Source: a virus
Taxonomy: Duplodnaviria > Heunggongvirae > Uroviricota > Caudoviricetes
Direction: 5' to 3' (one strand)
IMG/VR virus record: IMGVR_UViG_2600255005_000002
DNA length: 17,422 bases
The notes below the pieces were generated by a model that was given only the letters and a program-made list of their open reading frames with translations, did not search any database and had not been told where the DNA came from. Position 1 is the stretch's first letter. Each line of letters opens with the position of its first letter. Positions 1 to 17,422 of this stretch are shown piece by piece. The translations under genes were made by a program, and so were the position numbers.

Positions 1-1506
1 TTAGTAAGTACGAATCTTCGGCGGGAATGCCGGGCGCAGTTTCGGTTCCATGTTGACGCTACGTCGCGTCATGGATTCCGACTCTGGCAGATACAGGGAG
101 TGACACAGCCAGTTTTCATCATCACGCTCCGGGAAGTCGAAGCGGCTATGCGCGCCACGGCTTTCGGTACGGAAGTTGGCAGAAACAGCCGTTGCATACG
201 CCGTTTCCATCAGGTTATCCAGTTCCAGGCATTCAACGCGCTGGGTGTTGAACTCGCTGGAGGTGTCATCCAGACGGGCATTTTTCAGACGCTCGCGGAT
301 CACTTTCAACTGCTCAAGCCCTTTCGCCATCGCATCACCTTCACGGAAGACCGAGAAGTTATGCTGCATACATTCTTGCAGTGCTTTACGAATCGCCACC
401 GGATCTTCACCGTTACGGTTGTTGTTCCAGCGGTTCAGGCGCTCCAGAGAAGCTTCGACATCAGACTCGCTGGCATCGCGCAGTGCGCCCTGTTCGGCGA
501 TAGACTCTTGCAGATGCAGACCTGCCGCACGACCAAAGACCACCAGGTCCAGCAGCGAGTTGCCGCCAAGACGGTTAGCGCCGTGTACCGATACGCAAGC
601 AATTTCACCCACCGCGAACAGGCCAGGAATCACCACATCTTCGCCCTTCTCGTTCACGGTCAGCGCCTGCCCGGTCACTTTGGTCGGAATACCGCCCATC
701 ATGTAGTGACAGGTTGGGATAACCGGAATCGGCTCTTTCACCGGATCGACGTGAGCGAAGGTACGGGAGAGTTCAAGAATGCCCGGCAGACGGGATTCGA
801 GAACTTCTTTACCCAGGTGGTCGAGTTTCAGTTTTGCGTGTGGTCCCCACGGGCCATCACAGCCACGACCTTCACGAATTTCGATCATGATGGAACGCGC
901 CACCACATCACGCCCCGCCAGGTCTTTGGCGTTCGGCGCATAACGCTCCATAAAGCGTTCGCCATGTTTGTTCAGCAGATAACCGCCTTCACCACGGCAA
1001 CCCTCGGTGACCAGTACGCCCGCACCGGCAATACCCGTCGGGTGGAACTGCCACATTTCCATATCCTGCACCGGTACGCCTGCACGGATAGCCATGCCGA
1101 CGCCGTCGCCGGTGTTAATGTGGGCGTTGGTGGTGGACTGATAAATACGCCCTGCTCCGCCAGTCGCCAGCACGGTAGCGCGGGCTTTGAAATAAACCAC
1201 TTCACCGGTTTCGATGCACAGTGCGGTACAACCGACCACTGCGCCATCCTGGTTTTTCACCAGATCCAGCGCATACCACTCGGAGAAAATGGTGGTGTGG
1301 TTTTTCAGGTTCTGCTGATAAAGGGTGTGCAACAGTGCGTGACCGGTACGGTCAGCCGCTGCCGCTGTACGTGCCGCCTGCTCGCCGCCGAAGTTTTTCG
1401 ACTGACCGCCAAACGGACGTTGATAGATACGACCATCATCAAGGCGCGAGAACGGCAGTCCCATGTGTTCCAGTTCCAGAATCGCTTCCGGCCCGGTTTT
1501 ACACAA
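1..1506 (-). CDS. sdhA: Succinate dehydrogenase flavoprotein subunit, 5'-truncated fragment (C-terminal ~500 of 588 residues); reading frame broken at junction near 1505
   Basis: Minus-strand ORF translation ends ...[12 protein letters not shown] and contains the flavoprotein motifs ([21 protein letters not shown]) recognised as E. coli SdhA. The track start at 1506 is TTG at a position where SdhA has an internal Met (..YMCKTGPEA..), so the N-terminal ~87 residues are absent. Stop codon is at 1-3. Confidence 0.9.
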
Positions 1507-1512
1507 GAGTTA

Positions 1513-1911
1513 ATGGAATTGGCAAGTGAATTTTCTGGCATGCTTAAGTCGTCAGGTGTTCGGTCAGCGTTCTTTGTTGAAATGCTGATGCACGGCGGAC
1601 TTATGGCAACAATGAGACGTGTAATGGAAGACCAGAGAAAAGAACCTCCTCAGGTATACGTTTTGTCATCGAAGAAAACTGGGCTAACCAAAATTGGGTA
1701 TTCATCCAACATTCCACAACGCATCAAATCGCTTGGCAACTCTGGACCAGACTGCTTGAAGCTTGAGTGCCTGATCCCTGGTGGAAGAGAAACTGAAAAC
1801 ATGCTTCATCGCAAATTTGCCGCAAAGAGAAAGCACGGTGAATGGTTCGCCCTGTCCAAGGATGACATTGAGGGATTGAAATCTGTAGCGATTACTTCTG
1901 ATGGCTATTAA
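1513..1911 (+). CDS. T5orf172-type (GIY-YIG superfamily-like) small domain protein; start uncertain (ATG at 1513, 1603 or 1624)
   Basis: C-terminal 132 codons of track ORF 100..1911, the only part not antisense to sdhA. Sequence PQVYVLSSKKTGLTKIGYSSNIPQRIKSL...ENMLHRKFAAKRKHGEWFALS shows GIY(VYV)-x11-YIG(KIG) spacing, conserved Arg and Glu, and the terminal GEWF motif typical of T5orf172 domains. GGCGGA lies 3 nt before the ATG at 1603; only weak AAGAG precedes 1513. Confidence 0.6.
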   Translation: MELASEFSGMLKSSGVRSAFFVEMLMHGGLMATMRRVMEDQRKEPPQVYVLSSKKTGLTKIGYSSNIPQRIKSLGNSGPDCLKLECLIPGGRETENMLHRKFAAKRKHGEWFALSKDDIEGLKSVAITSDGY

Positions 1912-2425
1912 TGCTTGTTTAGAGCAATTTTCATAACAACTCTTCATTACAAAGCCCATTTACGGGTGGGCTTGATAATGAAACCGGAATTTATTCTGGG
2001 CCACCAGTTAACGGCAGTACCACGAAACAACCCAAGCCAGTAAGTGGAGAAATAACACCGGCAGCCACTGAAAGATGAACCTCCTGCCTTATGGCAAAAA
2101 AGATTCTTTGTGGTGGCGGACTGATGGAAAGACATCGGTTATTGCAGAGGCCATTCAATGAGTGGTCTCGACAATGGCTTATACCCTACACGGGATAACT
2201 TAACTGATATCCCTTTTAACGGATAAAGGTATTCAAGCCTGACACATCATGCGCTGTATCGTCGCTGTACTCTTGCATTAATTATGACTGTAGCCTGACG
2301 GGGAACTCCTTCTGCGCGAGTGTGCGGGAATAATCAAAAACGATGCACACCGGGGTTACCGGGTACACATATTTCATCATGCCAGCGAGTCCGGTTCTGG
2401 CGCGGAAGAAACCGGACGTTATGAT

Positions 2426-2836
2426 TTAGTGCGGAAATATTTGTGTAGTGTTCTGAATGTTCTCAGTAAATAGTAATGAATTATCAAAGGTATAGTAATA
2501 CCTTTTGTTTTCGTGGATATTTGTAACCCACCGAAAAACTCCTGCTTTAGCAAGGTTTCTTCTGTATTCCTGAAATGTGATCTCTCTGGATTTCAGCTTA
2601 TTAGAGGTCGTTTCTATAAGATGCCTATCCTTTGAAAATTTGACAGACACAATGTTTTTTAGGCCCTTTAATAACACTGTATTATCATTTTTTAATACAA
2701 TATGAACATTCTCTGTGGCTAAATAGTAAATGTAATGTGAGACATTGTGACGTTTTAGCTCAGAATAAAACCATTGATAGTTTAAATCGTTTCGAACTTT
2801 ATCAAATATTTGTTTAAAAATGACTACCTGATCCAT
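2426..2836 (-). CDS. Lambdoid right-arm accessory protein, DUF1398-like (YdfO/YbcV-family homolog); function unknown
   Basis: Minus-strand ORF (track 2426..2851, 141 aa). The internal ATG at 2834-2836 ([11 protein letters not shown]...) has a GGAAGG Shine-Dalgarno 7 nt upstream, whereas the first ATG at 2851 has none. AT-rich; resembles from memory the ORF in the last ~1 kb of lambda and its cryptic-prophage homologs. Confidence 0.6.
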
Positions 2837-2893
2837 AGATAAACCTTCCATGTGATATGAGGGGGCGTAGTCTGCACGATTATCTAAATTGCT

Positions 2894-3127
2894 TCAATCT
2901 GGTCTGACCTGTTTTCTGAGCAATTCAGTAATGTCACTCTTTTCTTTGTTTGCTTCAGGAGAAACTCTTTTTTCTGAGCACAGTCTCCGGCGGCAGGCTT
3001 CAATGACCCAGGCTGAGAAATTCCCGGACCCTTTTTGATCAAGAGCGATGTTAATTTGTTCAATCATTTGGTTAGGAAAGCGGATGTTGCGGGTTGTTGT
3101 TCTGCGGGTTCTGTTCTTCGTTGACAT
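2894..3127 (-). CDS. Small basic ribbon-helix-helix-like protein, DUF3950-like (YnfO/YlcI-family homolog of the lambda right-end ORF)
   Basis: 77-aa minus-strand ORF MSTKNRTRRTTTRNIRFPNQMIEQINIALDQKGSGNFSAWVIEACRRRL... The N-terminal ~50 residues match from memory the small ORF encoded just left of cos in lambda; the C-terminus diverges. Confidence 0.55.
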   Translation of the reverse strand: MSTKNRTRRTTTRNIRFPNQMIEQINIALDQKGSGNFSAWVIEACRRRLCSEKRVSPEANKEKSDITELLRKQVRPD

Positions 3128-3289
3128 GAGGTTGCCCTGTATTCAGTGTCGCTGATTTGTATTGTCTGAAGTTGTTTTTACGTTAAGTTGATGCAGATCA
3201 ATTAATACGATACCTGCGTCATAATTGATTATTTGACGTGGTTTGATGGCGTAGATGCACGTTGTGACATGTAGATGATAATTATTATC

Positions 3290-3510
3290 ATTTTGCGGGT
3301 CCTTTCCGGCGATCCGACAGGTTACGGGGCGGCGACCTCGCGGGTTTTCGCTATTTATGAAAATTTTCCGGTTTAAGGCGTTTCCGTTCTTCTTCGTCGT
3401 AACTTAATGTTTTTATTTAAAATACCCCCTGAAAAGAAAGGAAACGACAGGTGCTGAAAACGAACTTTTGGGCCTCTGTCGTTTCCTTTCTCTGTTTTTG
3501 TCCGTGGAAT
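3290..3510 (+). promoter_or_regulatory. cos: Lambda-type cos site (cosQ - cosN - cosB with Nu1/IHF binding elements), present as a joined circular-form junction
   Basis: Sequence ...GATCCGACAGGTTACG|GGGCGGCGACCTCGCGGGTTTTCGCTATTTATGAAAATTTTCCGG... reproduces the lambda right-end/left-end junction. It lies immediately upstream of Nu1 and includes the 14-bp inverted repeat AAAGGAAACGACAG (3437-3450) / CTGTCGTTTCCTTT (3476-3489). Confidence 0.85.
3327..3338 (+). promoter_or_regulatory. cosN: cosN 12-nt cohesive-end sequence GGGCGGCGACCT (terminase nicking site)
   Basis: Exact 12-mer GGGCGGCGACCT at 3327-3338, flanked by the characteristic GTTACG and CGCGGG. Confidence 0.85.
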
Positions 3511-3515
3511 GAACA

Positions 3516-4034
3516 ATGGAAGTCAACAAAAAGCAGCTGGCTGACATTTTCGGTGCGAGCATCCGTACCATTCAGAACTGGCAGGAGCAGGGAATGCCCG
3601 TTCTGCGAGGTGGCGGGAAGGGTAATGAGGTGCTTTATGACTCTGCCGCCGTCTAAAATGGTATGCCGAAAGGGATGCTGAAATTGAGAACGAAAAGCTG
3701 CGCCGGGAGGTTGAAGAACTGCGGCAGGCCAGCGAGACAGATCTGCAGCCAGGGACTATTGAGTACGAACGCCATCGACTTACGCGTGCGCAGGCCGACG
3801 CACAGGAGCTGAAAAATGCCAGAGACTCCGCTGAAGTGGTGGAAACCGCATTCTGTACTTTCGTGCTGTCGCGGATCGCAGGTGAAATTGCCAGTATTCT
3901 CGACGGGATCCCCCTGTCGGTGCAGCGGCGTTTTCCGGAACTGGAAAACCGACATGTTGATTTCCTGAAACGGGATATCATCAAAGCCATGAACAAAGCA
4001 GCCGCGCTGGATGAACTGATACCGGGGTTGCTGA

Positions 4035-4060
<26 letters not shown>
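3516..4060 (+). pseudogene. Nu1: Terminase small subunit Nu1, disrupted by a -1 frameshift at about 3651-3656 (premature TAA at 3654)
   Basis: ATG at 3516 gives MEVNKKQLADIFGASIRTIQNWQEQGMPVLRGGGKGNEVLYDSAAV then stop. The remainder (KWYAERDAEIENEKL...SEYIEQSG, ending at 4060) continues in another frame. Window has GTCTAAAATGG where lambda (from memory) has GTCATAAAATGG. Confidence 0.85.
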
Positions 4061-7740
<3,680 letters not shown>

Positions 7741-7760
<20 letters not shown>

Positions 7761-9056
7761 TCTCCCGCATATTGCCAGTATGGCCTTTAATGAGCCGCTT
7801 ATGCGCGGGTTTTCTTTTGTGCGCTTGCAGGCCAGCTTGGGATCAGCCGCCTGACGGATGCGGTGTCCGGCGACAGCCTGACTGCCCAGGAGGCACTCGC
7901 GACGCTGGCATTATCCGGTGATGATGACGGACCACGACAGGCCCGCAGTTATCAGGTCATGAACGGCATCGCCGTGCTGCCGGTGTCCGGCACGCTGGTC
8001 AGCCGGACGCGGGCGCTGCAGCCGTATTCGGGGATGACCGGTTACAACGGCATTATCGCCCGTCTGCAACAGGCTGCCAGCGACCCGATGGTGGACGGCA
8101 TTCTGCTCGATATGGACACGCCAGGCGGAATGGTGGCGGGAGCATTTGACTGCGCTGACATCATTGCCCGTGTGCGTGACATAAAACCGGTATGGGCGCT
8201 GGCCAACGATATGAACTGCAGTGCAGGTCAGCTGCTTGCCAGTGCCGCCTCCCGGCGTCTGGTCACGCAGACCGCCCGGACAGGCTCCATCGGCGTCATG
8301 ATGGCTCACAGTAATTACGGTGCTGCGCTGGAGAAACAGGGTGTGGAAATCACGCTGATTTACAGCGGCAGCCATAAGGTGGATGGCAACCCCTACAGCC
8401 ATCTTCCGGATGACGTCCGGGAGACACTGCAGTCCCGGATGGATGCAACCCGCCGGATGTTTGCGCAGAAGGTGTCGGCATATACCGGCCTGTCTGTGCA
8501 GGCTGTGCTGGATACAGAGGCTGCAGTGTACAGCGGTCAGGAGGCCATTGATGCCGGACTGGCTGATGAACTTGTCAACAGCACCGATGCGATCACCGTT
8601 ATGCGTGATGCACTGGATGCACGTAAATCCCGTCTCTCAGGAGGGCGAATGACCAAAGAGACTCAATCAACAACTGTTTCAGCCACCGCTTCGCAGGCTG
8701 ACGTTACTGACGTGGTGCCAGCTACGGAGGGCGAAAACGCCAGCGCGGCGCAGCCGGACGTGAACGCGCAGATCACCGCAGCGGTTGCGGCAGAAAACAG
8801 CCGCATTATGGGGATCCTCAACTGTGAGGAGGCTCACGGACGCGAAGAACAGGCGCGCGTTCTGGCAGAAACCCCCGGAATGACCGTGGAAACGGCCCGC
8901 CGCATTCTGGCCGCAGCACCACAGAGTGCACAGGCGCGCAGTGACACTGCGCTGGATCGTCTGATGCAGGGTGCACCGGCACCGCTGGCTGCAGGTAACC
9001 TGGCATCTGATACCAATAAAGAATTACTTAATACACCTGAAGCTTTACCGGTATAA
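7741..9056 (+). pseudogene. C: Prohead protease/scaffold gpC, N-terminus disrupted by a ~16-bp deletion at about 7799-7800; downstream frame open
   Basis: GTG at 7741 gives MTAELRNLPHIASMAFNEPLM then diverges, with a stop at 7852-7854. The C sequence resumes in frame 0 (ARVFFCALAGQLGIS..SGDSLTAQEALATLALSGDDDGPRQ...). Window has GAGCCGCTTATGCGCGGG where lambda (from memory) has GAGCCGCTGATGCTTGAACCCGCCTATGCGCGGG. Confidence 0.75.
8439..9056 (+). CDS. Nu3: Scaffolding protein Nu3 (in-frame internal start within C), apparently intact
   Basis: ATG at 8439 (MDATRRMFAQKVSAYTGLSVQ...) is in the downstream C frame, which is uninterrupted to the stop at 9054-9056. C-terminus (..AAGNLASDTNKELLNTPEALPV) differs from lambda. 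Confidence 0.5.
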   Translation: MDATRRMFAQKVSAYTGLSVQAVLDTEAAVYSGQEAIDAGLADELVNSTDAITVMRDALDARKSRLSGGRMTKETQSTTVSATASQADVTDVVPATEGENASAAQPDVNAQITAAVAAENSRIMGILNCEEAHGREEQARVLAETPGMTVETARRILAAAPQSAQARSDTALDRLMQGAPAPLAAGNLASDTNKELLNTPEALPV

Positions 9057-9065
9057 GAGGCAGTT

Positions 9066-9398
9066 ATGGCGTCAAAAGAAGAGTTTAACCATTACCAGCC
9101 GCTGGGTAACAGTGATCCGGCTCATACAGCAATTGCGCCTGGCGGATTGAGTGCGAAAACGCCTGCAATGACCCCGCTGATGCTGGATGGCACTACCCGT
9201 AAGCTGGTTGTGTGGGATGGCACCACCGACGGTGCAGCCGTTGGCATTCTGGCGGTTGCTGCTGACCAGACCAGCACCACACTGACGTTCTACAAGTCCG
9301 GCTCGTTCCGTTATGAGGATGTGCTCTGGCCGGAGGCTGCCAGCGACGAGACTAAAAAACGGACCGCGTTTGCCGGAACGGCAATCAGCATCGTTTAA
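9066..9398 (+). CDS. D: Head decoration protein gpD (110 aa), divergent allele
   Basis: 110-aa [44 protein letters not shown]...FAGTAISIV; same length as lambda gpD with scattered substitutions; ATG preceded by AAGAGG. Confidence 0.9.
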
Positions 9399-9415
9399 TC
9401 TTCCCCTTCATCAAC

Positions 9416-9440
9416 AAAGGCCGCCTGTGCGGCTTTTTTT
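9416..9440 (+). terminator. Rho-independent terminator-like hairpin between D and E (GCCGC-CTGT-GCGGC followed by T7)
   Basis: AAAGGCCGCCTGTGCGGCTTTTTTT: 5-bp GC stem, 4-nt loop, seven T residues. Probably a partial terminator or mRNA-stability element, since E must be co-transcribed. Confidence 0.4.
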
Positions 9441-9453
9441 ATGGAAATAATTT

Positions 9454-10479
9454 ATGTCTGTATATACAACTGCAGAATTACTGGCATCGACCCAGCATCA
9501 CTTTAAGTTCGATCCGCTGTTTCTGCGTCTCTTTTTCCGTGAAACCTATCCTTTCACCACGGAAAAAGTCTATCTCTCACAAATTCCGGGACTGGTAAAC
9601 ATGGCGCTGTACGTTTCGCCGATTGTTTCCGGTGAGGTTATCCGATCCCGTGGCGGCTCCACCTCTGAATTTACGCCGGGTTATGTCAAGCCGAAGCATG
9701 AGGTGAATCCGCAGATGACCCTGCGTCGCCTGCCGGATGAAGATCCGCAGAACCTGGCTGACCCGGCTTACCGTCGTCGCCGTATTATTCGGCAGAATAT
9801 GCTGGATGAAAATCTGGCGATTGCCCAGGTCGAAGAGATGCAGGCAGTTTCTGCCGTGCTTAAGGGCAAATACACCATGACCGGTGAAGCCTTCGATCCG
9901 GTTGAGGTGGATATGGGCCGCAGTGCGGCGAATAACATCACGCAGTCCGGCGGCACGGAGTGGAGCAAGCGTGACAAGTCCACGTATGACCCGACCGACG
10001 ATATCGAAGCCTACGCGCTGAACGCCAGCGGTGTGGTGAATATCATCGTGTTTGATCCGAAAGGCTGGGCGCTGTTCCGTTCCTTCAAGGCCGTCAAGGA
10101 GAAGCTGGATACCCGTCGCGGCTCTCATTCCGAGCTGGAGACAGCGGTAAAAGACCTGGGCAAAGCGGTGTCTTATAAGGGAATGTATGGCGATGTGGCC
10201 ATCGTCGTGTATTCCGGACAGTACGTGGAAAACGGCGTCAAAAAGAACTTCCTGCCGGACAACACGATGGTGCTGGGGAACACTCAGGCACGCGGTCTGC
10301 GCACCTATGGTTGCATTCAGGATGCGGACGCACAGCGCGAAGGCATTAACGCCTCTGCCCGTTACCCGAAAAACTGGGTGACCACCGGCGACCCGGCGCG
10401 TGAGTTCACCATGATTCAGTCAGCACCGCTGATGCTGCTGGCTGACCCTGATGAGTTCGTGTCCGTACAACTGGCGTAA
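9454..10479 (+). CDS. E: Major capsid protein gpE (341 aa)
   Basis: 341-aa ORF MSVYTTAELLASTQHHFKFDPLFLRLFFRETYPFTTEKVYLSQIPGLVNMALYVSPIVSGE...; same length as lambda gpE; N-terminal residues differ from lambda (from memory). Confidence 0.95.
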   Translation: MSVYTTAELLASTQHHFKFDPLFLRLFFRETYPFTTEKVYLSQIPGLVNMALYVSPIVSGEVIRSRGGSTSEFTPGYVKPKHEVNPQMTLRRLPDEDPQNLADPAYRRRRIIRQNMLDENLAIAQVEEMQAVSAVLKGKYTMTGEAFDPVEVDMGRSAANNITQSGGTEWSKRDKSTYDPTDDIEAYALNASGVVNIIVFDPKGWALFRSFKAVKEKLDTRRGSHSELETAVKDLGKAVSYKGMYGDVAIVVYSGQYVENGVKKNFLPDNTMVLGNTQARGLRTYGCIQDADAQREGINASARYPKNWVTTGDPAREFTMIQSAPLMLLADPDEFVSVQLA

Positions 10480-10481
10480 TC

Positions 10482-10510
10482 ATGGCCCTTCGGGGCCATT
10501 TTCTCTCTGT
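10482..10510 (+). terminator. Hairpin downstream of E (ATGGCCC-TTCG-GGGCCAT followed by TTTCTCTCTG)
   Basis: Perfect 7-bp inverted repeat with a 4-nt loop at 10482-10499 followed by a pyrimidine/T-rich run, directly after the E stop codon and before the FI ribosome-binding site. Confidence 0.35.
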
Positions 10511-10520
10511 GGAGGAGTCC

Positions 10521-10916
10521 ATGACGAAAGATGAACTGATTGCCCGTCTCCGCTCGCTGGGTGAACAACTGAACCGTGATATCAGCCTGACGGGGACGAA
10601 AGAAGAACTGGCGCTCCGTGTGGCAGAGCTGGAAGAAGAGCTTGATGACACGGGCGACACTGCCGGTCAGGATACCCCTCTCAGCCCGGAAAATGTGCTG
10701 ACCGGACATGAAAATGAGGTTGTATCAGCGCAGCCGGATACCGTGACTGATACGGCTGATCTGGTCACGGTTGTGGCACTGGTGACGCTGCATACTGATG
10801 CACTTCACGCCACGCGGGATGAGGCTGTGGCATTTGTGCTGCCGGGAACGGCGTTTCGTGTCTCTGCCGGTGTGGCAGCCGAAATGACAGAGCGCGGCCT
10901 GGCCAGAATGCAATAA
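10521..10916 (+). CDS. FI: DNA-packaging / head assembly protein gpFI (131 aa)
   Basis: ATG at 10521 preceded by GGAGGAG; MTKDELIARLRSLGEQLNRD...ERGLARMQ. One codon shorter than lambda FI, with a substitution cluster in the middle. Confidence 0.85.
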   Translation: MTKDELIARLRSLGEQLNRDISLTGTKEELALRVAELEEELDDTGDTAGQDTPLSPENVLTGHENEVVSAQPDTVTDTADLVTVVALVTLHTDALHATRDEAVAFVLPGTAFRVSAGVAAEMTERGLARMQ

Positions 10917-10927
10917 CGGGAGGCGCT

Positions 10928-11281
10928 GTGGCTGATTTCGATAACCTGTTCGATGCTGCCATTGCCCGCGCCGATGAAACGATACGCGGGTACATGGGAA
11001 CGTCAGCCACCATGACATCCGGTGAGCAGTCCGGCGCAGTAATACGTGGTGTTTTTGATGACCCTGAAAATATCAGCTATGCCGGACAGGGCGTGCGCGT
11101 TGAAGGCTCCAGCCCGTCCCTGTTTGTCCGGACTGATGAGGTGCGGCAGCTGCGGCGTGGAGACACGCTGACCATCGGTGAGGAAAATTTCTGGGTAGAT
11201 CGGGTTTCGCCGGATGATGGCGGAAGTTGTCATCTCTGGCTTGGACGGGGCGTACCGCCTGCCGTTAACCGTCGCCGCTGA
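10928..11281 (+). CDS. FII: Head-tail connector protein gpFII (117 aa, GTG start)
   Basis: MADFDNLFDAAIARADETIRGYMGTSATMTSGEQSGAVIRGVFDDPENISYAGQGVRVEG...; GTG start preceded by GGGAGG. Confidence 0.85.
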   Translation: MADFDNLFDAAIARADETIRGYMGTSATMTSGEQSGAVIRGVFDDPENISYAGQGVRVEGSSPSLFVRTDEVRQLRRGDTLTIGEENFWVDRVSPDDGGSCHLWLGRGVPPAVNRRR

Positions 11282-11292
11282 AAGGGGGATGT

Positions 11293-11871
11293 ATGGCCAT
11301 AAAAGGTCTTGAGCAGGCCGTTGAAAACCTCAGCCGTATCAGCAAAACGGCGGTGCCTGGTGCCGCCGCAATGGCCATTAACCGCGTTGCTTCATCCGCG
11401 ATATCGCAGTCTGCGTCACAGGTTGCCCGTGAGACAAAGGTACGCCGGAAACTGGTAAAGGAAAGGGCCAGGCTGAAAAGAGCCACGGTCAAAAATCCGC
11501 AGGCCAGAATCAAAGTTAACCGGGGGGATTTGCCCGTAATCAGGCTGGGTAATGCGCGGGTTGTCCTGTCCCGCCGCAGGCGTCGTAAAAAGGGGCAGCG
11601 TTCATCCCTGAAAGGTGGCGGCAGCGTGCTTGTGGTGGGTAACCGTCGTATTCCCGGCGCGTTTATTCAGCAACTGAAAAATGGCCGGTGGCATGTTATG
11701 CAGCGTGTGGCCGGGAAAAACCGTTACCCCATTGATGTGGTGAAAATCCCGATGGCGGTGCCGCTGACCACGGCGTTTAAACAGAATATTGAACGGATAC
11801 GGCGTGAACGTCTTCCGAAAGAGCTGGGCTATGCGCTGCAGCATCAACTGAGAATGGTAATAAAGCGATGA
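11293..11871 (+). CDS. Z: Tail completion protein gpZ (192 aa)
   Basis: MAIKGLEQAVENLSRISKTAVPGAAAMAINRVASSAISQSASQVARETKVRRKL...; ATG preceded by AAGGGGGAT; overlaps U start (ATGA). Confidence 0.9.
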   Translation: MAIKGLEQAVENLSRISKTAVPGAAAMAINRVASSAISQSASQVARETKVRRKLVKERARLKRATVKNPQARIKVNRGDLPVIRLGNARVVLSRRRRRKKGQRSSLKGGGSVLVVGNRRIPGAFIQQLKNGRWHVMQRVAGKNRYPIDVVKIPMAVPLTTAFKQNIERIRRERLPKELGYALQHQLRMVIKR

Positions 11872-12263
11872 AACATACTGAACTCCGTGCAGCCGTACTG
11901 GATGCACTGGAGAAGCATGACACCGGGGCGACGCTTTTTGATGGTCGCCCCGCTGTTTTTGATGAGGAAGATTTTCCGGCAATTGCCGTTTATCTCACCG
12001 GCGCTGAATACACGGGCGAAGAGCTGGACAGCGATACCTGGCAGGCGGAGCTGCATATTGAAGTTTTCCTGCCTGCTCAGGTGCCGGATTCAGAGCTGGA
12101 TTCGTGGATGGAGTCCCGGATTTATCCGGTGATGAGCGATATCCCGGCACTGTCAGATTTGATCACCAGTATGGTGGCCAGTGGCTATGACTACCGGCGC
12201 GACGATGATGCGGGCCTGTGGAGTTCAGCCGATCTGACTTATGTCATTACCTATGAAATGTGA
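11868..12263 (+). CDS. U: Tail terminator protein gpU (131 aa)
   Basis: [56 protein letters not shown]... Confidence 0.9.
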
Positions 12264-12270
12264 GGACGAT

Positions 12271-13011
12271 ATGCCTGTACCAAATCCAGCAATACCGGTG
12301 AAAGGTGCCGGAACCACCCTGTGGGTTTATAACGGGAGCGGCGACCCTTATGCAAACCCGCTTTCAGACGTTGACTGGTCGCGTCTGGCTAAAGTTAAAG
12401 ACCTGACGCCCGGCGAACTGACCGCTGAGTCCTATGACGACAGCTATCTCGATGATGAAGATGCAGACTGGACTGCGACCGGACAGGGGCAGAAATCTGC
12501 CGGAGATACCAGCTTCACGCTGGCGTGGATGCCCGGAGAGCAGGGGCAGCAGGCGCTGCTGGCGTGGTTTAATGAAGGCGATACCCGTGCCTATAAAATC
12601 CGCTTCCCGAACGGCACGGTCGATGTGTTCCGTGGCTGGGTCAGCAGTATCGGTAAGGCGGTGACGGCGAAGGAAGTGATCACCCGCACGGTGAAAGTCA
12701 CCAATGTGGGACGTCCGTCGATGGCAGAAGATCGCAGCACGGTAACAGCGGCAACCGGCATGACCGTGACGCCTGCCAGCACCTCGGTGGTGAAAGGGCA
12801 GAGCACCACGCTGACCGTGGCATTCCAGCCGGAAGGCGCAACCGACAAGAGCTTCCGTGCGGTGTCTGCGGATAAAACAAAAGCCACCGTGTCGGTCAGT
12901 GGTATGACCATCACCGTGAAAGGTGTTGCTGCAGGCAAGGTCAACATTCTGGTCGTATCCGGTAATGGTGAACTTGCTGCGGTTGCAGAAATCAACGTCA
13001 CCGCCAGTTAA
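12271..13011 (+). CDS. V: Major tail tube protein gpV (246 aa) with C-terminal Ig-like domain
   Basis: ATG at 12271 ([30 protein letters not shown]...) preceded by GAGGACG. The track ORF begins 10 codons upstream at an ATG lacking a ribosome-binding site. C-terminal ~90 residues are Thr/Val-rich and Ig-like. Confidence 0.9.
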
Positions 13012-13026
13012 TCCGGAGAGTCAGCG

Positions 13027-13449
13027 ATGTTCCTGAAAACCGAATCATTTGAACATAACGGTGTGACCGTCACGCTTTCTGAACTGTCAGCCCTGCAGCG
13101 TATTGAGCATCTCGCCCTGATGAAACGACAGGCAGAACAGGCGGAGTCAGACAGCAACCGGAAGTTTACTGTGGAAGACGCCATCAGAACCGGCGCTTTT
13201 GTGGTGGCGATGTCCCTGTGGCATAACCATCCGCAGAAGACAAAGCTGCCTTCCATGAATGAAGCCGTTAAACAGATTGAGCAGGAAGTGCTTACCACCT
13301 GGCCCACGGAGGCAATTTCTCATGCTGAAAACGTGGTGTACCGGCTGTCCGGTATGTATGAGTTTGTGGTGAATGATGCTCCTGAACAGGCAGATGACGC
13401 CGGGCCTGCAGAGCCTGTTTCTGCGGGAAAGTGTTCGACGGTGAGCTGA
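13027..13449 (+). CDS. G: Tail assembly chaperone gpG (140 aa)
   Basis: MFLKTESFEHNGVTVTLSELSALQRIEHLALMKRQAEQAESDSNRKF...PVSAGKCSTVS; ATG preceded by GGAGAG. Confidence 0.9.
   Translation: MFLKTESFEHNGVTVTLSELSALQRIEHLALMKRQAEQAESDSNRKFTVEDAIRTGAFVVAMSLWHNHPQKTKLPSMNEAVKQIEQEVLTTWPTEAISHAENVVYRLSGMYEFVVNDAPEQADDAGPAEPVSAGKCSTVS
13425..13431 (+). promoter_or_regulatory. Programmed -1 ribosomal frameshift slippery heptamer G GGA AAG producing the G-T fusion
   Basis: GGGAAAG at 13425-13431 near the 3' end of G, arranged X XXY YYZ in the G frame. The -1 frame continues directly into the T reading frame (FDGELSFALKLAREMG...). Confidence 0.7.
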
Positions 13450-13865
13450 GTTTTGCCCTGAAACTGGCGCGTGAGATGGGGCGACCCGACTGGCGTGCCA
13501 TGCTTGCCGGGATGTCATCCACGGAGTATGCCGACTGGCACCGCTTTTACAGTACCCATTATTTTCATGATGTTCTGCTGGATATGCACTTTTCCGGGCT
13601 GACATATACCGTGCTCAGCCTGTTTTTCAGCGATCCGGATATGCATCCGCTGGATTTCAGTCTGCTTAACCGGCGTGAGGCTGACGAAGAGCCTGAAGAT
13701 GATGTGCTGATGCAGAAAGCGGTAGGGCTTGCCGGAGGCGTTCGTTTTGGCCCGGACGGGAAAGAAGTTATCCCCGCTTCCCCGGATGTAGCGGACATGA
13801 CGGAGGATGACGTAATGCTGATGACAGTATCAGAAGGGATCGCAGGAGGAGTCCGGTATGGCTGA
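13431..13865 (+). CDS. T: gpT portion of the tail assembly chaperone, expressed as the G-T fusion by -1 frameshifting (fusion spans 13027-13865)
   Basis: Frame-0 ORF of 144 codons (..FDGELSFALKLAREMGRPDWRAMLAGMSSTEYADWHRFYSTHYFHDVLL...), with no independent ATG or ribosome-binding site; begins at the slippery site and ends at the TGA overlapping the H start. Confidence 0.8.
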   Translation: MFDGELSFALKLAREMGRPDWRAMLAGMSSTEYADWHRFYSTHYFHDVLLDMHFSGLTYTVLSLFFSDPDMHPLDFSLLNRREADEEPEDDVLMQKAVGLAGGVRFGPDGKEVIPASPDVADMTEDDVMLMTVSEGIAGGVRYG

Positions 13866-16419
13866 ACCGGTAGGCGATCTGGTCGTTGATTTAAGTCTGG
13901 ATGCGGCCAGATTTGACGAGCAGATGGCCAGAGTCAGGCGTCATTTTTCCGGTACGGAAAGTGATGCGAAAAAAACAGCGGCAGTCGTTGAACAGTCGAT
14001 GAACCGGCAGGCGCTGGCTGCACAGAAAGCGGGGATTTCCGTCGGGCAGTATAAAGCCGCCATGCGTATGCTGCCTGCACAGTTCACCGACGTGGCCACG
14101 CAGCTTGCAGGCGGGCAAAGTCCGTGGCTGATCCTGCTGCAACAGGGGGGTCAGGTGAAGGACTCCTTCGGCGGGATGATCCCCATGTTCCGGGGGCTTG
14201 CCGGTGCGATCACCCTGCCGATGGTCGGGGCCACCTCGCTGGCGGTGGCGACCGGTGCGCTGGCGTATGCCTGGTATCAGGGCAACTCAACCCTGTCCGA
14301 TTTCAACAAAACGCTGGTTCTTTCCGGCAATCAGTCGGGGCTGACGGCAGATCGTATGCTGGTCCTGTCCAGAGCCGGGCAGGCGGCAGGGCTGACGTTT
14401 AACCAGACCAGCGAGTCACTCAGCGCACTGGTTAAGGCGGGGGTAAGCGGTGAGGCTCAGATTGCGTCCATCAGCCAGAGTGTGGCGCGTTTCTCTTCTG
14501 CATCCGGCGTGGAGGTGGACAAGGTCGCTGAAGCCTTCGGGAAGCTGACCACTGACCCGACGTCGGGGCTGACGGCGATGGCGCGCCAGTTCCATAACGT
14601 GACGGCGGAGCAGATTGCGTATGTTGCTCAGTTGCAGCGTTCCGGCGATGAAGCCGGGGCATTGCAGGCGGCGAACGAGGCCGCAACGAAAGGGTTTGAT
14701 GACCAGACCCGACGCCTGAAAGAGAACATGGGCACGCTGGAAACCTGGGCAGACAGGACAGCACGGGCATTCAAATCCATGTGGGATGCGGTGCTGGATA
14801 TTGGTCGTCCTGATACCGCTCAGGAGATGCTGATTAAGGCAGAGGCTGCGTTTAAGAAAGCGGACGACATCTGGAATCTGCGCAAGGATGATTATTTTGT
14901 TAACGATGAAGCGCGGGCGCGTTACTGGGATGACCGTGAAAAGGCCCGTCTTGCGCTTAAAGCCGCCCGAAAGAAGGCTGAACAGCAGAGTCAACAGGAC
15001 AAAAATGCGCAGCAGCAGAGCGATACCGAAGCGTCACGGCTGAAATATACCGAAGAGGCGCAGAAGGCTTACGAACGGCTGCAGACACCGCTGGAGAAAT
15101 ATACCGCCCGTCAGGAAGAACTGAACAAGGCACTGAAAGACGGGAAAATCCTGCAGGCAGATTACAACACGCTGATGGCGGCGGCGAAAAAGGATTATGA
15201 AGCGACGCTGAAAAAGCCGAAACAGTCCGGCGTGAAGGTGTCTGCGGGCGATCGTCAGGAAGACAGTGCTCATGCTGCCCTGCTGACGCTTCAGGCAGAA
15301 CTCCGGACGCTGGAGAAGCATGCCGGAGCGAATGAGAAAATCAGCCAGCAGCGCCGGGATTTGTGGAAGGCGGAAAATCAGTTCGCGGTACTGGAGGAGG
15401 CGGCACAACGTCGCCAGCTATCCGCACAGGAGAAATCCCTGCTGGCGCATAAAGATGAGACGCTGGAGTACAAACGCCAGCTGGCTGTACTTGGCGATAA
15501 GGTCACGTATCAGGAGCACCTGAATGCGCTGGCGCAGCAGGCGGATAAGTTCGCACAGCAACAACGGGCAAAACGGGCAGCCATTGAGGCGAAAAACCGG
15601 GGGCTTACTGACCGGCAGGCAGCGCGGGAAGCCACAGAACAGCGCCTGAAGGAACAGTATGGCGATAATTCGCTGGCGCTGAATAACGTCATGTCAGAGC
15701 AGAAAAAGACCTGGGCGGCTGAAGACCAGCTTCGCGGGAGCTGGATGGCAGGCCTCAAGTCCGGCTGGAGTGAGTGGGAAGAGAGCGCCACGGACAGTAT
15801 GTCGCAGGTTAAAAGTGCAGCCACGCAGACCTTTGATGGTATTGCGCAGAATATGGCGGCGATGCTGACCGGCAGTGAACAGAACTGGCGCAGCTTCACC
15901 CGCTCCGTGCTGTCCATGATGACAGAAATTCTGCTTAAGCAGGCAATGGTGGGGATTGTCGGGAGTATCGGCAGCGCCATTGGCGGGGCTGTTGGTGGCG
16001 GCGCATCAGCGTCAGGCGGTACAGCCATTCAGGCAGCTGCGGCGAAATTCCATTTTGCGACCGGAGGATTTACGGGAACCGGCGGCAAATATGAGCCAGC
16101 GGGGATTGTTCACCGTGGTGAATTTGTCTTCACTAAGGAGGCAACCAGCCGGATTGGCGTGGGGAATCTCTACCGGCTGATGCGCGGCTATGCCACCGGC
16201 GGTTATGTCGGTACACCGGGCAGCATGGCGGACAGCCGCTCGCAGGCGTCCGGGAAGTTTGAGCAGAATAACCATGTGGTGATTAACAACGACGGCACGA
16301 ACGGTCAGATAGGGCCACAGGCGCTGAAGGCGGTTTATGACGTAGCCCGTAAGGCGGCAATGGATGTTGTGACCGGGCAGATGCGCGATGGTGGTCTGTT
16401 CTCCGGAGGTGGACGATGA
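13858..16419 (+). CDS. H: Tail tape measure protein gpH (853 aa)
   Basis: 853-aa ORF MAEPVGDLVVDLSLDAARFDEQMARVRRHFSGTESDAKKTAAVVEQS..., with a long central coiled-coil-like Ala/Gln/Lys/Glu-rich region and C-terminal Gly-rich segment; same length as lambda gpH. Confidence 0.95.
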   Translation: MAEPVGDLVVDLSLDAARFDEQMARVRRHFSGTESDAKKTAAVVEQSMNRQALAAQKAGISVGQYKAAMRMLPAQFTDVATQLAGGQSPWLILLQQGGQVKDSFGGMIPMFRGLAGAITLPMVGATSLAVATGALAYAWYQGNSTLSDFNKTLVLSGNQSGLTADRMLVLSRAGQAAGLTFNQTSESLSALVKAGVSGEAQIASISQSVARFSSASGVEVDKVAEAFGKLTTDPTSGLTAMARQFHNVTAEQIAYVAQLQRSGDEAGALQAANEAATKGFDDQTRRLKENMGTLETWADRTARAFKSMWDAVLDIGRPDTAQEMLIKAEAAFKKADDIWNLRKDDYFVNDEARARYWDDREKARLALKAARKKAEQQSQQDKNAQQQSDTEASRLKYTEEAQKAYERLQTPLEKYTARQEELNKALKDGKILQADYNTLMAAAKKDYEATLKKPKQSGVKVSAGDRQEDSAHAALLTLQAELRTLEKHAGANEKISQQRRDLWKAENQFAVLEEAAQRRQLSAQEKSLLAHKDETLEYKRQLAVLGDKVTYQEHLNALAQQADKFAQQQRAKRAAIEAKNRGLTDRQAAREATEQRLKEQYGDNSLALNNVMSEQKKTWAAEDQLRGSWMAGLKSGWSEWEESATDSMSQVKSAATQTFDGIAQNMAAMLTGSEQNWRSFTRSVLSMMTEILLKQAMVGIVGSIGSAIGGAVGGGASASGGTAIQAAAAKFHFATGGFTGTGGKYEPAGIVHRGEFVFTKEATSRIGVGNLYRLMRGYATGGYVGTPGSMADSRSQASGKFEQNNHVVINNDGTNGQIGPQALKAVYDVARKAAMDVVTGQMRDGGLFSGGGR

Positions 16420-16745
16420 AAACCTTCCGCTGGAAAGTGAAACCCGGTATGGATGTGGCTTCGGCCCCTTCCGTAAGAAAGGTGCGCTTTGGTGATGGCT
16501 ATTCTCAGCGAGCGCCTGCCGGGCTGAATGCCGACCTGAAAACGTACAGCGTGACGCTTTCTGTTCCCCGTTGGGAGGCCACGGCGCTTGAGTCGTTTCT
16601 GGCTGAGCACGGGGGCTGGAAATCCTTTCTGTGGACGCCGCCTTATGAGTGGCGGCAGATAAAGGTGACCTGCGCAAAATGGTCGTCGCGGGTCAGTATG
16701 CTGCGTGTTGAGTTCAGCGCAGAGTTTGAACAGGTGGTGAACTGA
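16416..16745 (+). CDS. M: Minor tail protein gpM (109 aa)
   Basis: MKTFRWKVKPGMDVASAPSVRKVRFGDGYSQRAPAGLNADLKTYSVTLSV...; ATGA overlap with the H stop. Confidence 0.9.
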   Translation: MKTFRWKVKPGMDVASAPSVRKVRFGDGYSQRAPAGLNADLKTYSVTLSVPRWEATALESFLAEHGGWKSFLWTPPYEWRQIKVTCAKWSSRVSMLRVEFSAEFEQVVN

Positions 16746-17422
16746 TGCAGGATATCCGGCAGGAAACACTGAATGAATGCACCCGTGCGGAGCAGTCGGC
16801 CAGCGTGGTGCTCTGGGAAATCGATCTGACAGAGGTCGGTGGAGAACGTTATTTTTTCTGTAATGAGCAGAACGAAAAAGGTGAGCCGGTCACCTGGCAG
16901 GGGCGACAGTATCAGCCGTATCCCATTCAGGGGAGCGGTTTTGAACTGAATGGCAAAGGCACCAGTACGCGCCCCACGCTGACGGTCTCTAACCTGCACG
17001 GCATGGTCACCGGTATGGCGGAAGACCTGCAGAGTCTGGTCGGCGGAACGGTGGTCCGGCGTAAGGTTTACGCCCGTTTTCTGGATGCGGTGAACTTCGT
17101 TAACGGAAACAGCGACGCCGATCCGGAGCAGGAGGTGATCAGCCGCTGGCGCATCGAACAGTGCAGCGAACTGAGCGCGGTGAGTGCCTCTTTTGTACTG
17201 TCCACGCCGACTGAAACGGATGGTGCTGTTTTTCCGGGGCGCATCATGCTGGCTAATACCTGCACCTGGACCTATCGCGGTGATGAGTGCGGTTATCACG
17301 GTCCGGCTGCAAATTGTATTCTGCCGGAGCAGAAAGCAATTAACGTTTGGAGAACTGCGGACGACGACGTGCTTTACGCAGACCGACTTTCTTACGTTCA
17401 ACCTGACGAGCGTCACGAGTAA
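16745..17422 (+). CDS. L: Minor tail protein gpL, 3'-truncated: L-derived sequence ends at about 17297-17310, after which the open frame reads through antisense rpsI sequence to the window end
   Basis: MQDIRQETLNECTRAEQSASVVLWEIDLTEVGGERYFFCNEQNEKGEPVTWQGRQYQPYPIQGSGFELNGKG...CTWTYRGDECGY matches lambda gpL (232 aa in lambda). The following residues (HGPAANCILPEQKAINVWRTADDDV...) are not L; no stop codon within the window. Confidence 0.75.
   Translation: MQDIRQETLNECTRAEQSASVVLWEIDLTEVGGERYFFCNEQNEKGEPVTWQGRQYQPYPIQGSGFELNGKGTSTRPTLTVSNLHGMVTGMAEDLQSLVGGTVVRRKVYARFLDAVNFVNGNSDADPEQEVISRWRIEQCSELSAVSASFVLSTPTETDGAVFPGRIMLANTCTWTYRGDECGYHGPAANCILPEQKAINVWRTADDDVLYADRLSYVQPDERHE
17340..17422 (-). 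CDS. rpsI: 30S ribosomal protein S9, 3' end only (last 26 codons plus stop); gene continues beyond the window
   Basis: Minus-strand translation of 17343-17420 is TRDARQVERKKVGLRKARRRPQFSKR followed by TAA (17340-17342), identical to the C-terminus of E. coli S9 as remembered. Confidence 0.8.
   Translation of the reverse strand, partial: TRDARQVERKKVGLRKARRRPQFSKR

Follow-up and report, generated by a model that had tools for sequence, protein, structure and literature searches.

The head genes of phage lambda (NC_001416) and the mosaicism of lambdoid phages are the closest described systems with which the locus analysed here can be compared. Red recombines sequences that are 22% diverged, a process suggested to give rise to mosaic genomes in lambdoid phages (Martinsohn, Radman and Petit 2008, PMC2327257). 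Interdependent genes are co-transferred (Kupczok et al. 2022, PMC9836094). At the level of the virion, the N-terminus of decoration protein D joins the E-loop of one capsid protein E and the N-terminal strand of the neighbouring E in a sheet of four strands (PMC5701804). In the procapsids of P22, 80alpha and phi29, the C-terminus of the scaffold contacts the N-arm of the coat protein (summarised in PMC12749128). The present locus resembles the cases of PMC2327257 and PMC9836094 in its sharp switches between near-identical and diverged sequence within a syntenic module, and in that neighbouring, functionally related structural genes are hit together. Its tracts are sub-genic (67-236 bp), whereas the cited work deals mostly with whole genes or modules.

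A lambda-type head module in a decaying prophage

The window, i.e., the whole analysed stretch of 17,422 nucleotides (IMG/VR virus record IMGVR_UViG_2600255005_000002), aligns over positions 3327-17309 with lambda 1-13993 in a single collinear alignment of 96.7% identity. Its gene order (Nu1-A-W-B-C/Nu3-D-E-FI-FII) is that of lambda, and the lambda-type family domains (S49 protease, HDPD, Phage_cap_E and Packaging_FI) are all present above the curated Pfam cut-offs. The genes from C to FI and the segments within them lie on the plus strand. Gene C, encoding the S49 prohead protease (7741..9056), aligns to lambda 4418-5737 (Pfam Peptidase_S49, E = 4.7e-44) and contains, nested in its frame, an intact Nu3 scaffold gene (8439..9056). 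It is followed by the genes for the 110-residue head decoration protein D (9066..9398; HDPD, E = 8e-21; 90% identity to lambda D), the 341-residue major capsid protein E (9454..10479; Phage_cap_E, E = 5e-70; 96% identity to lambda E), which matches solved structures of the lambda capsid (7VI9 and related entries), and FI (10521..10916; 131 residues; Packaging_FI). Order, lengths, functions and Pfam families are thus alike to those of C/Nu3, D, E and FI in lambda (NC_001416, 4418-7600).

Three essential head genes are frameshifted: Nu1 runs into a stop after 46 amino acids, B shifts frame after about 83 and C after 21. The shift in C results from the loss of 16 bp after position 7799 (codon 21), which is private to the window: all 14 close relatives with the window-type allele keep these 16 bp. 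Moreover, the left half of the prophage has been deleted and the remainder fused to sdhA; the 31-mer spanning this sdhA-phage junction was not found in IMG/VR. The carrier of the window is a defective, decaying remnant of a lambda-like prophage and not an inducible phage. A sequence-only reading of this DNA missed these frameshifts, as well as the split of the head-gene divergence into three blocks and a further divergent patch in gene H (16305-16404). It had described the genes adjacent to the divergent region as nearly identical to lambda, and for the proteins this is correct, dN being 0.001-0.013 and dS 0.05-0.10 in A, W, FII, Z and U.

Three divergent blocks and a separately varying FI linker

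Relative to lambda (NC_001416), the window has a C/Nu3 tail that is four residues longer, 11 substitutions in D, 14 in E and one residue less in FI. The sequence-only reading had noticed the longer, altered C tail, about ten substitutions in D, changes in the first 30 residues of E and a substitution cluster in an FI one codon shorter, and had attributed them to a recombinational patch. Each of these observations was borne out by alignment, and the identity profile shows that divergence is not uniform along the region, the listed differences going far beyond chance. Mismatch enrichment was evaluated with a Poisson model on a background of 0.022 mismatches per base. Outside three short blocks the nucleotide identity to lambda is 97-99%, while inside them it falls to 62-84%.

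Block 1 (9001..9236) extends from the C/Nu3 tail across the C-D junction into D, where it includes codons 1-57, with 52 mismatches in 236 nt (P ~1e-33) and 48 near-fixed differences between the two allele classes described below, including a 12-bp insertion. This insertion, at 9035, accounts for the four extra tail residues, the C/Nu3 end reading ...GNLASDTNKELLNTPEALPV in the window versus ...GNPASDAVNDLLNTPV in lambda; the intact Nu3 carries the same altered C-terminal tail (...KELLNTPEALPV). All examined outgroups from the Enterobacteriaceae have a Nu3 tail ending in ...DDLLNTPV, and a relative from the Aeromonadaceae ends in ...DLLAIPV. Ten of the 11 substitutions among the 110 residues of D fall within residues 1-49. 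The dS in this block reaches 0.54 in the C/Nu3 tail and 0.28 in D residues 1-50.

Block 2 (9399..9564) comprises the D-E intergenic region, where the diverged sequence surrounds a conserved hairpin, and E codons 1-37, which encode the N-arm. It holds 33 mismatches in 166 nt (P ~1e-20) and 34 near-fixed differences, and dS amounts to 0.94 over E residues 1-32. Block 3 (9753..9819; E codons 100-122) has 17 mismatches in 67 nt (P ~5e-13) and 17 near-fixed differences, mostly synonymous (12.5 synonymous versus 4.5 non-synonymous changes; dS 1.53). Its residue changes (M113R, R117L and E120N) are located in the predicted spine helix. An AlphaFold model of E, based on a 40-sequence alignment, has a pLDDT of only 58 and was used for helix positions alone, placing predicted helices at residues 6-16 and 104-137. 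In total, E differs from lambda at residues 3, 8, 12-16, 31, 113, 117, 120, 158, 159 and 225.

Between the blocks lie two spacers that are lambda-like in both allele classes, being 97-98% identical to lambda with two fixed differences in all. Spacer 1 (9237..9398) has one fixed difference and a dS of 0.094; spacer 2 (9565..9752), which includes the E-loop, also has one and encodes an identical protein (dN 0, dS 0.126). The rise in divergence over the flanks is abrupt and beyond chance in all three blocks, and concerns synonymous sites (dS about 0.28-1.53 in the blocks versus 0.05-0.13 in flanks and spacers) as well as the noncoding D-E spacer.

The same partition is seen in the population. Per-segment identities at 65 IMG/VR loci separate two classes, which share 62-84% identity in the blocks and 96-100% in the spacers, corresponding to a between-class divergence of 0.17-0.38 and 0.03, respectively. 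Of 101 near-fixed differences between the two alleles, which we call Perceval-type and lambda-type, 99 are inside the three blocks. The population is bimodal, without graded intermediates; class frequencies are biased, as the loci were ranked by similarity to the window E protein. At 99 of the 101 diagnostic sites the window is in the Perceval-type state, the exceptions being 9528 and 9531, which are lambda-type as in one other locus (L007).

The FI linker (10626-10830) is a different matter. It is diverged from lambda (19 mismatches in 205 nt, P ~3e-7), with 11 substitutions in a protein of 131 instead of 132 amino acids, but it is hypervariable in all lambda-like phages, and its alleles are distributed without regard to blocks 1-3. 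There are zero fixed differences between the classes, and diversity within a class equals divergence between them (0.07-0.08). Alleles that are 99-100% identical to the window's FI occur on lambda-type heads (L044, L058, L060 and L071), and Perceval-type heads also carry other FI alleles. Since FI shows no fixed difference and is equally variable in each class, it lies outside the patch. Its dS of 0.15 and dN of 0.07 fit relaxed constraint.

Distribution and origin of the allele

Escherichia phages Perceval (OV696612, genus Bievrevirus) and PhiR47_2 (PV340567) are 99.0-99.1% identical to the window over 8900-10916 and have the same three-block allele and the same FI allele. In the Perceval record Nu1, portal and C are annotated as complete, whereas in the window all three are frameshifted and the left half is lost. 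Beyond 8900-10900 the window is not closer to Perceval than it is to lambda. A literature search on phage Perceval found nothing. Among E. coli records matching the region, 229 of 3224 (about 7%) reach 95% identity or more in blocks 1-3; the 5,426 E. coli genomes contain roughly 4,700 matching places in all. Natural recombinants with breaks between the blocks occur at five loci (L129, L024, L031, L009 and L011): the Perceval-type tail and D are combined with lambda E in L129, a haplotype also present in four E. coli genomes at 100%; L011 joins the lambda tail to a Perceval-type E, L024 the Perceval-type tail and N-arm to the lambda helix, and L031 the lambda tail to a Perceval-like N-arm.

We propose that the window very probably carries the Perceval-type C/Nu3-D-E allele, one of two major alleles in lambda-like E. 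coli phages and prophages, made up of blocks derived by recombination. The backbone shared by both alleles would largely have been homogenised by recombination (about 2% divergence), and the blocks would represent much older sequence in the C/Nu3 tail, the N-terminal half of D, the D-E spacer, the E N-arm and the start of the long helix of E. Diverged lambdoid head modules may have exchanged three or more tracts to give this pattern, or a single import may have been interrupted later by two back-conversions, one in each spacer. The three-block set would then have been inherited as a tightly linked unit. We infer relaxed homologous recombination of the Red/Rad52 type as the mechanism of exchange, and likewise this number of events. 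The Perceval-type proteins would retain the jobs of their lambda counterparts in procapsid assembly, protease and scaffold targeting, and capsid stabilisation. The three-block allele is ordinary phage mosaicism, a known kind of feature and not a new system.

The sequence-only reading was thus right in invoking recombination, to which the block dS, the diverged D-E spacer and the 12-bp indel all point, while its single patch gives way to three blocks with FI apart. That one contiguous import of about 2 kb, from the end of C to FI, came from one lambdoid phage is highly improbable. A donor diverged like the blocks should differ in the spacers too, where outgroups are only 65-87% identical, yet the spacers are at background divergence from lambda-type phages (dS 0.09-0.13), and FI lacks any fixed difference between the classes. 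What does speak for a single transfer is the comparison of the window with Perceval, which have 0-5 mismatches per 200 nt throughout 8900-10900; this near-identity indicates that the window's own copy was probably inherited or acquired whole from a Perceval-like relative. Local rapid evolution by point mutation, under diversifying or relaxed selection and without recombination, would be compatible with the fairly high dN/dS of the C/Nu3 tail (0.40) and the D N-terminus (0.51), and its relaxed variant with the FI linker, for which alone it is still a reasonable account. For blocks 1-3 it is contradicted by a dS of 3-20 times the background, which identifies them as old imported or retained sequence and leaves this explanation with almost no probability; the mostly synonymous changes of block 3, the diverged noncoding D-E spacer and the bimodal population equally argue against it.

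It is also conceivable, though rather unlikely, that the blocks form a co-adapted cassette encoding surfaces that must match, with selection purging recombinants of mixed alleles. The changed residues lie in portions of the proteins that meet, or would be expected to meet, as the head assembles. The pairing of the D N-terminus with the E-loop and the neighbouring E N-terminal strand (PMC5701804) is the sole literature-backed contact among the changed parts. The window substitutions fall within the predicted E helices 6-16 and 104-137, and they alter positions that hardly vary elsewhere in the family (tail ...DLLNTPV, K16, K/R117 and E120). Block sites are strongly associated, with a median r2 of 0.91 at 200-800 bp versus 0.05-0.08 at backbone sites, but this contrast is confounded by the shared origin of the block sites and by blocks merely 160-190 bp apart, and the r2 decay test of epistasis was set aside because block sites define the classes by construction. 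Mixed alleles do occur, in four kinds (L129, L011, L024 and L031), every partial combination seen having intact frames, so that co-adaptation is unproven. A charge covariation between the tail (D/N/K) and E residue 15 (K/Q/H) looked promising across outgroup, lambda and window, and was rejected as it breaks in L079 and L106.

With a similarly low probability, the blocks may be a sub-genic co-adapted set in which the C/Nu3 tail, the N-arm helix of E and the beginning of its spine helix form a remodelled contact, accompanied by the D strand that pairs with this N-arm. Purging of mismatched combinations would keep the set together, while recombination homogenises the sequence around and between the blocks. 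In P22, 80alpha and phi29 the counterparts of the changed tail, N-arm helix and spine-helix start are contact elements, a likeness in working only: lambda Nu3 has no detectable sequence relation to these scaffolds, and the contact is hypothetical for lambda Nu3/C. None of the solved structures contains Nu3, and the pLDDT of the E model is low.

The ancestry of the preferred reading's recombination-derived blocks was addressed in several databases. The sequence-only reading had suggested HK97-like, N15 and Stx phages as places to look for a donor; this was not borne out, as Stx1a phages are lambda-type and no HK97 or N15 record matched. Block 1 DNA was compared in a distant mode with 50,697 phage records. 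Matches at 99% were confined to Perceval and PhiR47_2, the remaining 78 matching records all being 77-78% identical. Among 185,579 species genomes, searched via relatives of E, no sequence resembled the blocks. Prophages of Kluyvera, Enterobacter, Citrobacter, Klebsiella, Buttiauxella, Trabulsiella, Dryocola and Pluralibacter are 43-87% identical across head-gene segments (43-85% in the blocks and 65-87% in the spacers). With D and E as queries against 5.8 billion proteins, the variant D N-terminus was absent elsewhere (next best 74%), and the E N-arm motif STQHH and helix motif IIRQNMLDEN occurred in no other protein. A lineage whose head module carries the blocks and is diverged evenly throughout was thus found neither in phage records nor in species genomes or proteins, and import is consequently indistinguishable from an old allele retained within homogenised surroundings. 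By outgroup polarity the window allele is derived in the tail, the E N-arm and the helix, and lambda is more derived in the D N-terminus; given this mixed outcome, the idea that either allele is simply ancestral was rejected.

Implications for lambdoid head modules

Phage and E. coli genomes already deposited contain the allele, which represents routine lambdoid mosaicism. It illustrates that the tracts of a mosaic lambda head module can be far below gene size and interleaved with homogenised sequence, so that a patch deduced from proteins can comprise several separate events. The variant residues, which cluster in the tail, in the E N-arm and where the spine helix begins, provide candidate natural variants for locating the docking of Nu3/C on the lambda capsid protein. 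If co-adaptation were true, this natural variation would mark an as yet unmapped scaffold and protease docking site on that protein.

Three divergent blocks in the head genes

The 65 related IMG/VR loci compared with the window fall into two classes, which carry either the window's own allele of the C/Nu3-D-E head segment (W-type or Perceval-type) or the lambda-type allele. The classes are separated by 101 near-fixed differences (14 W-type versus 50 lambda-type sequences), nearly all of them in three blocks. Block 1 (9001-9236; 48 differences) comprises the C/Nu3 tail, the C-D junction and D codons 1-57, block 2 (9399-9564; 34 differences) the D-E intergenic region with E codons 1-37, and block 3 (9753-9819; 17 differences) E codons 100-122. 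Only two of the 101 lie elsewhere, at 9303 and 9681. Between the classes, the divergent segments differ by 0.38, 0.17, 0.22 and 0.22, but both spacers (9237-9398 and 9565-9752), which are 97-98% identical to lambda, by 0.03.

The individual differences from lambda that the sequence-only reading had listed are borne out. A 12-bp insertion adds four residues to the shared C/Nu3 tail and its sequence is altered (window ...GNLASDTNKELLNTPEALPV, lambda ...GNPASDAVNDLLNTPV); D has 11 substitutions over 110 residues, ten of them within residues 1-49; E differs at N-terminal residues 3, 8, 12-16 and 31; and FI lacks one residue and carries 11 substitutions. E further differs at 113, 117, 120, 158, 159 and 225, which that list lacked. 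The mismatches cluster far beyond chance in three dense stretches (Poisson P of about 1e-33, 1e-20 and 5e-13) and in FI (about 3e-7).

FI had been counted as part of the patch, but it assorts independently of it. There are no fixed FI differences between the classes, and FI is as diverse within a class (0.05-0.08) as it is diverged from one class to the other. Four loci with lambda-type heads (L044, L058, L060, L071) have an adjoining FI allele that matches the window's at 99-100% identity, and the W-type heads of L002-L005 adjoin other FI alleles. The linker of FI is hypervariable and assorts freely, with values (dS 0.15, dN 0.07) compatible with relaxed constraint.

In each of the D-E (9415-9441) and E-FI (10482-10499) intergenic regions, a GC-rich hairpin precedes a T run; both hairpins are conserved across the two allele classes, with strongly diverged flanks in the case of the D-E hairpin. 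In locus L031, whose head is lambda-type, the E N-arm is W-like and finely interleaved (MSVYTTAELLAATQHH; E codons 1-20, locus positions ~2990-3060) and the E helix is a third variant, IILQNMRDEEL, which implies that block 2 has at least one further allele or conversion tracts of very small size.

The carrier prophage

From the lambda cos site at 3327 to 17309, the window is collinear with lambda 1-13993 (96.7% identity by alignment) and retains its gene order (Nu1, A, W, B, C/Nu3, D, E, FI, FII, Z, U, V, G, T, H, M, L). Background divergence amounts to ~2.2 mismatches per 100 nt, nearly all synonymous, and the flanking genes are, as had been noted from the sequence, nearly identical to lambda (dN 0.001 and dS 0.075 for gene A; FII, Z and U are alike). 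An additional dense divergent patch lies at the H C-terminus (16305-16404), with 16505-16604 in M listed alongside it: the 200-column bin from 16305 holds 32 mismatches to lambda and likewise to Perceval, and the 100-column bin 29 to lambda. This patch in the tape-measure gene H is an independent mosaic tract. Lambda homology stops at 17307-17309 within gene L, also for all listed relatives, and the final 113 nt are strongly diverged.

The prophage is dead. Relative to lambda, Nu1 has a 1-bp deletion at 3653 (stop after 46 residues), portal gene B a 1-bp deletion at 6408 (frame shift after ~83 residues) and protease gene C a 16-bp deletion at 7799/7800 (frame shift after 21 residues) that the 14 closest relatives all lack; a simple change in homopolymer length accounts for none of the three lesions. 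Nu3, D, E and FI are still intact. At position 1506 the phage DNA, beginning within a 5'-truncated GIY-YIG/T5orf172 gene, is fused directly to the 3' five-sixths of sdhA (1-1506, minus strand; residues ~88-588; Pfam FAD_binding_2 from profile position 84, plus Succ_DH_flav_C). Since lysis genes precede the identical phage stretch in E. coli GmM066, the window lacks the lysis and early regions and the sdh start. A deletion or rearrangement would have removed the early/lysis half of the prophage with the start of the sdh operon; possibly, the sdhA-phage junction is an assembly chimera.

Origin and distribution of the W-type allele

Synonymous divergence is high in the C/Nu3 tail (dS 0.54), D residues 1-50 (0.28), E residues 1-32 (0.94) and E residues 101-126 (1.53) versus 0.05-0.13 in spacers and flanking genes. 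Together with the mostly synonymous changes in block 3 and the divergence of the non-coding D-E spacer around its conserved hairpin, these values mark the blocks as much older sequence within a young, common backbone. Point mutation under selection is ruled out by this synonymous and non-coding divergence. A single contiguous import does not account for it either, as it would leave the spacers diverged, unlike those observed; in the spacers, the identity of outgroup prophages to lambda is no more than 65-87%. The arrangement would have taken three or more exchange tracts, or else a single import after which both spacers were converted back. The block boundaries are common to all carriers, so the pattern arose once and was inherited afterwards. 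Red-type recombination between ~22% diverged sequences is documented and has been proposed as a source of lambdoid mosaicism (PMC2327257); it may also have acted on the head genes of the window. The proposal of one recombinational patch (8900-10916) from another lambdoid phage is thus correct in kind, recombination, and wrong in shape, there being three blocks with FI apart from them.

The donors suggested with it (HK97-like, N15 and Stx phages) fall away: in the phage collection, block 1 identity is strictly bimodal (99% or 77-78%), Stx1a phages carry the lambda-type block 1, and neither HK97 nor N15 had a matching record. Among prophages of Kluyvera, Enterobacter, Citrobacter, Klebsiella, Buttiauxella, Trabulsiella, Dryocola and Pluralibacter, identity over the head segments (C end, D, E) is 43-87% and no sequence is block-like, and the variant D and E N-termini and E helix are absent from other D/E proteins among 5.8 billion proteins searched. 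With no donor lineage in these three sources, the blocks may equally be an import from a lineage outside the sampling or an old allele that was retained.

The allele is a known kind of feature, already present in public records. The isolated phages Perceval (OV696612, genus Bievrevirus) and PhiR47_2 (PV340567) carry it at 99.0-99.1% identity, and since every head gene in the Perceval record is annotated complete, it is evidently functional. The window is nearly identical to Perceval over 8900-10900; elsewhere it is no nearer to Perceval than to lambda. In E. coli, 229 of 3224 matching genome records (7%) are W-type (at least 95% identity over blocks 1-3), the remainder lambda-type. Short, low-coverage contigs (L084-L099, L114-L120) assigned to unrelated taxa, including Chromatium, Neobacillus, Kitasatospora, Paenibacillus, Bradyrhizobium, Shewanella, Pseudomonas and Prevotella, encode an E of the lambda type (92-96% identical to the window's as protein), likely from laboratory lambda DNA contaminating the assemblies. 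The lambda-type head of Shigella flexneri SFBU0723 (L121, 3001-4021), with an E match 2 bp short at 91% identity, is probably another decaying prophage copy.

Variant residues and possible co-adaptation

The C/Nu3 C-terminus reads ...DDLLNTPV in all Enterobacteriaceae outgroups, ...DLLAIPV in an Aeromonadaceae relative, NDLLNTPV in lambda and KELLNTPEALPV in the window. The E N-arm changes from AVNEKK (outgroups) and AANEQK (lambda) to ASTQHH with Q8E (window), and E residues 113-120 from L..MKDEE and M..MRDEE, respectively, to R..MLDEN, altering both the family-wide K/R117 and E120. At the D N-terminus, the lambda allele is the more derived. For secondary structure alone, an AlphaFold prediction for the window's E (pLDDT 58) places helices at residues 6-16 and 104-137, which would match the N-arm and spine helices of the HK97 fold. 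The N-terminus of D joins the E-loop of one E and the N-terminal strand of its neighbor in a four-stranded sheet (PMC5701804), and in P22, 80alpha and phi29 one scaffold end touches the N-arm helix resting on the spine helix (PMC12749128). By residue position and these published contacts, the blocks fall in regions with documented or expected mutual contacts.

That selection holds the blocks together as a co-adapted set is unlikely. Block sites are strongly associated (median r2 of 0.91 at 200-800 bp versus 0.05-0.08 for backbone sites), yet this contrast is confounded, as block sites define the classes, have a single origin and lie 160-190 bp apart. Moreover, mixed combinations with intact reading frames occur naturally: L129, present at 100% identity in four E. 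coli genomes, joins a W-type tail and D to lambda E, L011 a lambda tail to W-type E, L024 a W-type tail and N-arm to the lambda helix, and L031 a lambda tail to a W-like N-arm. A candidate pairing of charges in the tail with E residue 15 breaks down in loci L079 and L106. No solved structure containing Nu3 was found. As the one non-trivial lead, these substitutions may point to the surface of the lambda capsid protein on which scaffold and protease dock.
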